Origin: a phage
Direction: 5' to 3' (one strand)
DNA length: 64,000 nucleotides
Assembly: GCA_019338205.1 (NCBI GenBank)
Contig: GCA_019338205.1_4761.1
The notes under the pieces were generated by a model. That model was not told the DNA's origin. It did not search any database and was given only the letters and a program-made list of their open reading frames with translations. Position numbers and translations under genes: made by a program. Of this stretch, positions 54,612-55,028 are shown one piece after another (positions within the stretch are counted from its first letter, which is position 1; each line of letters starts with the position of its first letter).

Positions 54612-55028
54612 ATGGAATTTAAAGCAATTCAAATCATGAAAGGTGAGCATAAAGGTACTATTATCGGTGGACATTTCGCGCCTATGATTCTGGTATCCGA
54701 ACCGAAAGCCCTGATCGGCGCTAAAGTAATTGTTAGTAAAACTTTCGCAGAAGACCATGTGATCACCGCAGAAGACGTCGATTCGCTGGCACTGCACACA
54801 ACTAGCTTCCGTCCTGTTATTGTAGATAATGGTGCTCCGGTTGTCGAAGGTGGTCAGCATTTGAATGTTAACGTATTGTTACGAGAAATGTTACTTGACG
54901 CTGTTGAACATCCTGAGAAGTACCCGCAGCTTACAATTCGCGTTTCTGGTTACGCAGTGCGCTTCAATAGTCTGACTCCAGACCAGCAGCGTGACGTTAT
55001 CGCGCGTACCTTTACCGAATCTCTCTAA
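54612..55028 (+). CDS. grcA: autonomous glycyl radical cofactor (GrcA/YfiD-like)
   Basis: 138 aa; C-terminal about 60 residues [15 protein letters not shown]...[39 protein letters not shown] nearly identical to recalled E. coli GrcA. Confidence 0.85.

Follow-up and report, generated by a model that had tools for sequence, protein, structure and literature searches.

The window, that is, the whole stretch of phage DNA that was analysed (64,000 nucleotides), contains on its plus strand a small gene whose ortholog is named vs.6 in the record of phage RB49. The open reading frame runs without interruption from an ATG start to a TAA stop and encodes a protein of 138 aa, as seen both in the ORF listing and by reading of the sequence. 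The features assigned to this locus and the evidence on which each of them is based are the following:

53991-54601, plus strand: upstream genes, i.e., a vs.8 homolog (53991-54476) and a conserved 41-aa ORF (54476-54601); ORFs, phrog_1488 and phrog_13848
54600-54608, plus strand: Shine-Dalgarno sequence AAGAGGTGA, located 3 nt 5' of the vs.6 ATG; direct sequence reading
54612-55028, plus strand: vs.6, a GrcA-like coding sequence of 138 aa plus the stop codon; ORF listing, Pfam Gly_radical, PDB GrcA match and phrog_1209
54612-54839, plus strand: N-terminal half of the protein (residues 1-76), phage-type; alignments, hhalign, dN/dS and AF2
54840-55025, plus strand: C-terminal glycyl-radical domain (residues 77-138); phmmer, hhalign, Foldseek and invariant columns
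54948-54950, plus strand: GGT codon of Gly113, the predicted radical-bearing glycine in RVSGYAV, equivalent to PFL G734; computed position, invariant in the alignment
55038-55072, plus strand: intrinsic terminator with a 10-bp stem AAGCCAATCC/GGGTTGGCTT (stem at 55038-55062) followed by a T-run; terminator scan and RNA fold

The RNA fold of the terminator located downstream of vs.6 has an energy of -17.9 kcal/mol (z = -4.6), and an equally good fold was obtained in 0 of 200 shuffled sequences. A terminator is also annotated at the equivalent place in the GEC-3S and G2248 records. On the 5' side, neither the late promoter TATAAATA nor a MotA box was found within positions 52800-55200. No strong sigma-70-like site is present directly upstream of vs.6 or between the upstream genes and vs.6, and the promoter-like sites in the region of this gene (12, vs. 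8.1 +/- 2.9 in shuffles) are not above the level of shuffled sequences. A dedicated vs.6 promoter was therefore rejected, as there is no late promoter, MotA box or strong sigma-70-like site nearby. The arrangement in which the vs.8 homolog and the 41-aa ORF precede vs.6 is common to RB49, Skers, GEC-3S, pEJ01, and the metagenomic relative L009. Because no promoter signal of its own was found, vs.6 is probably co-transcribed by read-through from the vs.8 transcription unit.

The 3-kb stretch around vs.6 shows 96-98% nucleotide identity to about 59 Krischvirus genomes (RB49, GEC-3S, Skers, Sf20, and others), for which the hosts are E. coli and Shigella. By this comparison the window is placed in Krischvirus, as an RB49-like relative of the T-even phages. 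Its remaining content fits a T-even relative, with genes for the baseplate proteins gp5, gp6, and gp53, a dNMP kinase, and Acb1; genes for an M15 endolysin, regB-region genes, and tk are also found in the window. The Krischvirus gene order (endolysin, vs.8, 41-aa ORF, vs.6, terminator, nrdC.11 encoding an RlaP nucleotidyltransferase, further genes, regB, vs.1, vs, tk) is kept in every Krischvirus record examined, including Skers, GEC-3S, G2248, and pEJ01. The same order is found in diverged metagenomic relatives (L008-L010), the proteins of which are 64-70% identical. In T4, the order is denV, vs.8, vs.7, vs.6, and vs.5, followed further on by regB, vs.1, vs, and tk. The location of vs.6 between vs.8 and regB is thus common to the RB49-like phages, their metagenomic relatives and T4, and from this shared place the window gene can be considered the positional ortholog of T4 vs.6/Y06I.

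The C-terminal part of the encoded protein provides the main indication of its nature. The earlier note described this gene as coding for a phage-borne glycyl-radical protein of the GrcA/YfiD type, with approximately 60 C-terminal residues nearly identical to GrcA, and at the level of protein sequence this description was confirmed. Over its last 62 residues, the protein has 56 positions in common with E. coli K-12 GrcA and 50 with PflB, and this stretch includes the RVSGYAVRF motif, in which G113 is the presumed radical glycine. Residues 77-138 correspond to residues 698-759 of PFL and 66-127 of GrcA. A phmmer search against PDB sequences gave GrcA (6owr; E = 5.8e-33, with residues 37-138 aligned) and PFL (1cm5/1h16; E = 5.5e-27, over PFL residues 698-759). 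The likeness of the window protein to GrcA and PFL is, by these scores, far beyond chance. Pfam Gly_radical, the only Pfam domain found, covers residues 78-119 with 61.3 bits against a cutoff of 22.2, and phrog_1209 is matched over its full length (E = 3.4e-51; residues 3-138 align with all 121 positions of the profile). The alignment of the family profile to PflB residues 698-760 by hhalign has a probability of 99.9%. In a set of 64 phage and bacterial homologs 24 columns are invariant, among them R110, S112, G113, Y114, and A115. The AlphaFold2 model has a mean pLDDT of 79, and the best Foldseek matches for it are the YfiD NMR structure 6owr and then PFL (2pfl); fold and glycine loop are thus shared with PflB residues 698-759. 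Two residues within REMLLDA, M91 and L93, are PflB-like, not GrcA-like.

Among NCBIfam models, the best match is TIGR04365 ("spare_glycyl"), with 133.8 bits over residues 37-138, which is below the equivalog cutoff of 170. T4 Vs.6 also scores under this cutoff (151.1 bits). Because that protein has been validated experimentally, the cutoff delimits bacterial GrcA equivalogs and is not a boundary of function. The model for formate C-acetyltransferase (TIGR01255) is matched only at profile positions 683-744, with a score of 88.4 bits where 994.2 would be needed. PflB is a protein of 760 aa with a ten-stranded barrel and the Cys418/Cys419 pair, whereas the window protein, with its 138 aa, contains neither the barrel nor these cysteines; judged by its domain content, it cannot alone be a formate acetyltransferase.

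The N-terminal half had been described as diverged, and this was borne out, with identity to GrcA ranging from roughly 0 to 47% in sliding windows and amounting to about 20-30% across the half. When phage-type and bacterial-type N-terminal halves alone were compared by hhalign, the result was 97.3% with E = 1.6e-11. The N-terminal half is thus to be regarded as diverged from that of GrcA yet homologous to it. Two motifs, KAIQI..GEHKGTI (in the common form KA.QI..G.HKGTI) and IVSKTF.ED, are common to the N-terminal halves of the window protein and T4 Vs.6. An insertion of about 12 residues, absent from both T4 Vs.6 and GrcA, is specific to the clade of 134-138-aa proteins. In the AF2 model, this half of the protein consists of short strands with pLDDT of approximately 80-87. 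Since the N-terminal half has only weak similarity to its GrcA counterpart and contains a clade-specific insertion, the details of binding could differ from those of GrcA. A pairwise MAFFT alignment pointed to a possible homology of the N-terminal half with PFL residues ~634-697 (GEHKGTI vs. DQKGAV), and this candidate was rejected by profile-profile comparison. No significant similarity was found between the N-terminal half and a profile of the PFL C-terminal 200 residues built from 48 sequences (E = 0.24), and the full profile aligned with PflB residues 698-760 only.

The closest characterized counterpart is T4 Vs.6 (Y06I), which shares with the window protein the stand-alone radical domain, the Straboviridae phage background and the N-terminal motifs. 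The two proteins are identical at 54 of 62 positions in the C-terminal module, and their overall identity of 59-60% extends over 98% of the length. They differ in size, the T4 protein having 120 aa and the window protein 138 aa, due to the N-terminal insertion and a few residues near position 60. E. coli GrcA (YfiD; 6owr, TIGR04365, IPR011140) has the same composition, i.e., a variable N-terminal half and a PFL-like radical domain with an identical RVSGYAV. However, the grcA gene is located on the chromosome, beside ung and under stress regulation, whereas the window gene lies in an early-region operon of a lytic phage. The N-terminal half of GrcA is also devoid of the insertion, and the TIGR04365 score of the phage protein is below the equivalog cutoff. 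GrcA-like proteins of 122 aa with a GrcA-type C-terminal module are also found in T5-like phages (Demerecviridae: phiLLS lls_81, PMBT22), and they align with the C-terminal 54-64% of the window protein at 62-73% identity. These proteins differ from it in the N-terminal half (MKAYQNLKSGVINIVHNN...), in genetic context (near tRNA genes) and in the DNA of the C-terminal module, which is 63-67% identical in nucleotides. GrcA-type homologs are found in 1,581 phage records, so the opinion that such metabolic cargo is unusual was overstated.

The protein-level similarity could be explained by vs.6, or its C-terminal half, having been recently taken from grcA of an enterobacterial host, as was supposed before. 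The 56 of 62 identical residues in the C-terminal module speak for this explanation, and the process is documented in other phages. In T4, the last ~45 codons of vs.6 are 100% identical in nucleotides to K-12 grcA (95.7% over the last 62 codons), and the N-terminal half has diverged to saturation. A match to the grcA 3' half with 95-99% nucleotide identity is present in 633 phage records (Tequatrovirus, RB69-like phages, and others), and for the alleles of Klebsiella phages the identity to E. coli grcA is 87-89%. However, the DNA of the window gene argues against recent capture. Its last 62 codons have 73.1% nucleotide identity to grcA; among the 56 codons for identical residues 32 (57%) differ, and third positions match at 27 of 62. 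The Nei-Gojobori comparison of the C-terminal half with grcA gave pS of 0.78, which is saturated, and pN of 0.087. The corresponding DNA of the window is 72% identical to that of T4, in which the 3' half of vs.6 has 96-100% identity to grcA. All of the 5,426 complete E. coli genomes searched by blastn gave a DNA match to vs.6 (median of three per genome), but the best of these matches, which lies in pflB and not in grcA, reaches only 75.7% identity over 44% of the gene. None of the best 80 bacterial loci listed for species-representative genomes, with the C-terminal 62 aa as the query, exceeds 76% nucleotide identity. Full-length DNA matches to vs.6 are found only in 58 Krischvirus records. 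The GC3 of the gene (0.41, the 72nd percentile of window ORFs) is typical for the phage, i.e., ameliorated to the phage norm.

In light of these data, a recent origin from the host gene is considered highly unlikely for the window lineage, and the suggestion of recent enterobacterial exchange is not supported for the hosts sampled. The vs.6 gene of this lineage is instead best viewed as an old, vertically inherited resident, without recent capture from the host, among the hosts sampled. Since nucleotide identity is 73% and synonymous sites are saturated, the protein identity of the C-terminal module is to be ascribed to strong purifying selection for fit to host PFL and PFL-AE, not to recent transfer. 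Recent gene conversion by grcA is evident from the DNA comparisons for the T4 lineage and not for that of the window. It follows that near-identity of the protein is a poor clock for the radical module, as behind a protein identity of ~90% there is a DNA identity of ~73% for the window gene and of 96-100% for T4. A literature search on the evolution or phenotype of phage grcA found nothing specific.

Both parts of the gene carry a mark of selection. Within the clade, dN/dS ranges from 0.06 to 0.31 for the two halves where dS is measurable, with 0.22-0.31 for the N-terminal half. Because these values are well below 1 in both halves, the whole Vs.6 protein, including the phage-type N-terminal half, is evidently under constraint. 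The substitution rates at synonymous sites are less uniform along the gene. In comparison with the window, G2248 has pS of 0.09 in the N-terminal half and 0.28 in the C-terminal half, and the respective values for pEJ01 are 0.15 and 0.67. This inequality suggests that the two halves of vs.6 sometimes have separate histories and that the C-terminal cassette passes from one phage to another. In pEJ01, an HNH endonuclease gene is inserted directly 3' of vs.6. With regard to the donor of the pEJ01 C-terminal module, no allele above 72% nucleotide identity was found among grcA, pflB, T4, T5-like, and metagenomic sequences.

The mechanism of action of spare-part proteins has been described for YfiD and for the T4 protein. 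The T4 precedent given in the earlier note is correct: T4 vs.6 is Y06I and is annotated as GrcA, and, according to PMC8683613 (citing Wagner et al., 2001), the radical is installed in YfiD and in Y06I by PFL-AE, after which O2-cleaved PFL regains activity. The radical of PFL is located on G734, and it is there that O2 cuts the chain (PMC8683613; PMC13450708). YfiD requires its disordered N-terminal half in order to bind and to be activated efficiently, but not for catalysis (PMC8683613; PMC13450708). The window protein is accordingly proposed, with a probability of about 80%, to be the Krischvirus ortholog of T4 Vs.6/Y06I and a GrcA/YfiD-type spare part for O2-damaged host PFL. The role in PFL repair is assigned because the protein retains all the elements with a known role, namely the whole C-terminal module with its RVSGYAV loop and an N-terminal half with homology to GrcA, and because the host possesses pflB and pflA, both of which are annotated in E. 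coli K-12. What the analysis shows for vs.6 itself is its homology to the family, with the motif, the fold and the synteny, together with purifying selection and a lack of recent exchange of DNA; installation of the radical, rescue of PFL and benefit to the phage would be expected by analogy with YfiD and Y06I.

It is proposed that in E. coli infected under microaerobic or fluctuating oxygen conditions, activated host PFL would be cut by O2 at Gly734. The phage protein would then dock on the cleaved enzyme, with its N-terminal half aiding the binding to PFL and its C-terminal 62 residues standing in for the lost radical domain. Next, host PflA (PFL-activating enzyme) would place the radical on Gly113 in RVSGYAV, and PFL activity (pyruvate + CoA -> acetyl-CoA + formate) would be regained. 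T-even-type infection halts host gene expression. A phage-borne copy might be useful for this reason, since neither damaged PFL nor host GrcA is renewed after host expression stops, and the phage's own copy could sustain the fermentative output of acetyl-CoA/ATP and formate during the latent period. A PFL repair part is retained by lytic phages of enterobacteria in two families or more, the T4-like and the T5-like ones, and therefore fermentation under fluctuating oxygen may matter for the yield of phages in the gut.

Other explanations of the function can also be considered. The protein might serve another glycyl-radical enzyme, e.g., host TdcE (2-ketobutyrate formate-lyase) or phage NrdD. 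The latter is also cleaved by O2 at its glycine, and TdcE has a C-terminus similar to that of PFL. RB49 encodes nrdD and nrdG (anaerobic ribonucleotide reductase) at a distance of 17-20 kb from vs.6, outside the window, and the median of three DNA matches per E. coli genome might perhaps be counted in favour of further partners. However, the C-terminal module is specific to PFL/GrcA (50-56 of 62 residues), in contrast to E values of ~1e-8 or weaker for other glycyl-radical enzyme classes, and there is no NrdD model among the matches. If TdcE were also rescued, this function would exist alongside the one in PFL repair, without replacing it, and spare-part proteins have been demonstrated only for PFL (PMC13450708). 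A different enzyme as the actual partner is therefore judged unlikely.

Since inhibitory mimics of host domains are frequent in phages, and the N-terminal half, with its insertion, is unlike that of the host protein, it could also be imagined that the protein is a decoy which soaks up PFL-AE or binds PFL unproductively, so that fermentation is shut down or redirected. A decoy, however, would have no need for an intact RVSGYAV and a full buried C-terminal module under strong constraint, and here the radical glycine is conserved together with every residue invariant across functional GrcA and PFL. In addition, the T4 ortholog restores PFL activity, with no inhibition, in the account given by PMC8683613. 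Inhibition of the host enzyme is thus seen as very unlikely. The labels "pyruvate formate-lyase" and "hypothetical protein," attached to some homolog records, could be understood as a sign that the ORF is only a decaying, functionless fragment of a captured pflB 3' end. This would be hard to reconcile with an intact ORF equipped with a strong RBS and a terminator, kept at one and the same locus by ~59 Krischvirus genomes as well as by diverged relatives from metagenomes. It is also at odds with dN/dS well below 1 in both halves and with an N-terminal half that is homologous to that of GrcA and gave no significant match to the last 200 residues of PFL, in which the segment directly before the radical domain is contained. 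The gene as a remnant of pflB is hardly credible.

If the spare-part function of Vs.6 is accepted, then a broader proposal can be made, in which Vs.6 is half of a formate-linked anaerobic package with NrdD/NrdG, and the gene itself evolves as two modules. This joint reading is tentative and, taken as a whole, rather improbable. According to PMC13450708 (citing Mulliez et al., 1995), the class III reductase of E. coli uses formate as its hydrogen donor. In the proposed package, PFL kept alive after host shut-off would supply formate, which would be used by the phage class III reductase, and in this way dNTPs could be produced in the gut. Homologs of NrdD were counted in 2,913 phage records, and among these are the T4-like and T5-like groups in which GrcA homologs occur as well. 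In a literature search, no paper was found proposing a PFL-formate-dNTP link for a phage spare part. As for the two modules, the N-terminal part would be a vertically inherited, phage-specific adaptor, possibly folded in Krischvirus, and the C-terminal radical cassette would be repeatedly overwritten by recombination. In T4-type phages, the overwriting DNA is proposed to come from grcA of the host; for Krischvirus such as pEJ01, it would come from other phage alleles, possibly via neighbouring HNH homing endonucleases.

It is also worth noticing how this gene family is represented in the databases. The protein of phage Skers, which is 100% identical to the window protein, is annotated as "putative autonomous glycyl radical cofactor." With this annotation and the cited biochemistry of the T4 ortholog, the functional reading is already known, as are the gene family and its presence in RB49-like phages; as a discovery, vs.6 of this particular phage matters little. 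The annotation of the family is, however, inconsistent and could be fixed. The PHROGs entry gives an unknown function, and in GenBank the homologs bear labels such as "pyruvate formate-lyase," "2-ketobutyrate formate-lyase," "acetyltransferase-like," "ribonucleotide reductase subunit," and "hypothetical protein." Such enzyme names on the phage homologs are to be seen as misnomers; "pyruvate formate-lyase" is one since a protein of 138 aa has no catalytic barrel.

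The T4 vs.6 gene (locus L003, 5558-5920), when compared with grcA of E. coli K-12 (locus L002, 4067-4450), proved to be a mosaic. Across the final ~45 codons of the phage gene the nucleotide identity to K-12 grcA is 100%, and over the final 62 codons it is 95.7%; in the N-terminal half, the divergence between the two genes is at saturation. The 3' half of grcA finds a 95–99% identical match in 633 phage records, and in Klebsiella phages the match to it is 87–89%. The mosaic structure of T4 vs.6, together with the matches in these phage records and in Klebsiella phages, suggests that host grcA recurrently overwrites the C-terminal cassette of the phage gene by gene conversion.

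The Krischvirus phages pEJ01 (L007, 2501-3556) and G2248 (L006, 1237-2917) show that in this genus the N- and C-terminal halves of vs.6 (residues 1-76 and 77-138 of the window protein) have different histories. In pEJ01, the proportion of synonymous differences from the window gene (pS, Nei–Gojobori) is 0.15 over the N-half and 0.67 over the C-half; the corresponding values in G2248 are 0.09 and 0.28. A donor of the pEJ01 C-terminal cassette was looked for among grcA, pflB, T4, T5-like, and metagenomic alleles, and was not found there. Both phages carry an HNH endonuclease gene in this region: in pEJ01, it is inserted immediately 3' of vs.6, and in G2248, it is located between the endolysin gene and vs.8. 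The differences between the halves of vs.6 and these HNH genes are consistent with homing accompanied by co-conversion of flanking DNA.

Among the matches listed, the best bacterial protein match to the C-terminal module of the window gene (58 of 62 residues) is a small GrcA of Enterobacterales type (L011, 1501-1683). The contig that carries it is 253 kb long and bears the label Vagococcus sp. WN89Y, a Firmicute. At the DNA level, this locus is only 74% identical to the window. Mislabelling, contamination, or transfer may be the cause of such an assignment. Labels disagree for the vs.6 family itself (phrog_1209). In PHROGs v4 it is given as 'unknown function', despite the biochemistry of T4 Y06I, and in GenBank the names given to its homologs include hypothetical protein, pyruvate formate-lyase, 2-ketobutyrate formate-lyase, acetyltransferase-like protein, and ribonucleotide reductase subunit.

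In the window, vs.6 is flanked by two genes:

54476-54601, + strand, conserved basic 41-aa ORF between vs.8 and vs.6 (phrog_13848, E = 6e-31)
55056-55813, + strand, nrdC.11 homolog of 232 aa downstream of vs.6 (RlaP/phrog_388 nucleotidyltransferase)

The start of the 41-aa ORF overlaps the stop codon of vs.8 (ATGA), and the ORF is found in RB49, Skers, GEC-3S, and pEJ01, with no call in G2248. At 55056-55084, overlapping the terminator of vs.6, lies a promoter-like sequence that has an extended -10 (TTGGCT-17-TATGAT), and thus the nrdC.11 homolog may open a new transcription unit.

Elsewhere in the window, two mutually adjacent endonuclease-like ORFs lie beside baseplate genes (42395-43560, +), one (231 aa) with a NUMOD3 motif of homing-endonuclease type and the other (157 aa) with a TnsA-like endonuclease N-terminal domain (E = 4e-21). 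At 44287-45414 (+), an ORF of 376 aa that starts at TTG contains a CapR homology domain (E = 8.7e-15) and overlaps the 3' end of an upstream 273-aa ORF, for which the domain search returned no family match. A protein of 156 aa that matches Pfam Acb1 (anti-CBASS nuclease) over the full length (E = 1.5e-51) is encoded at 47444-47911 (+), in the position of T4 57B.
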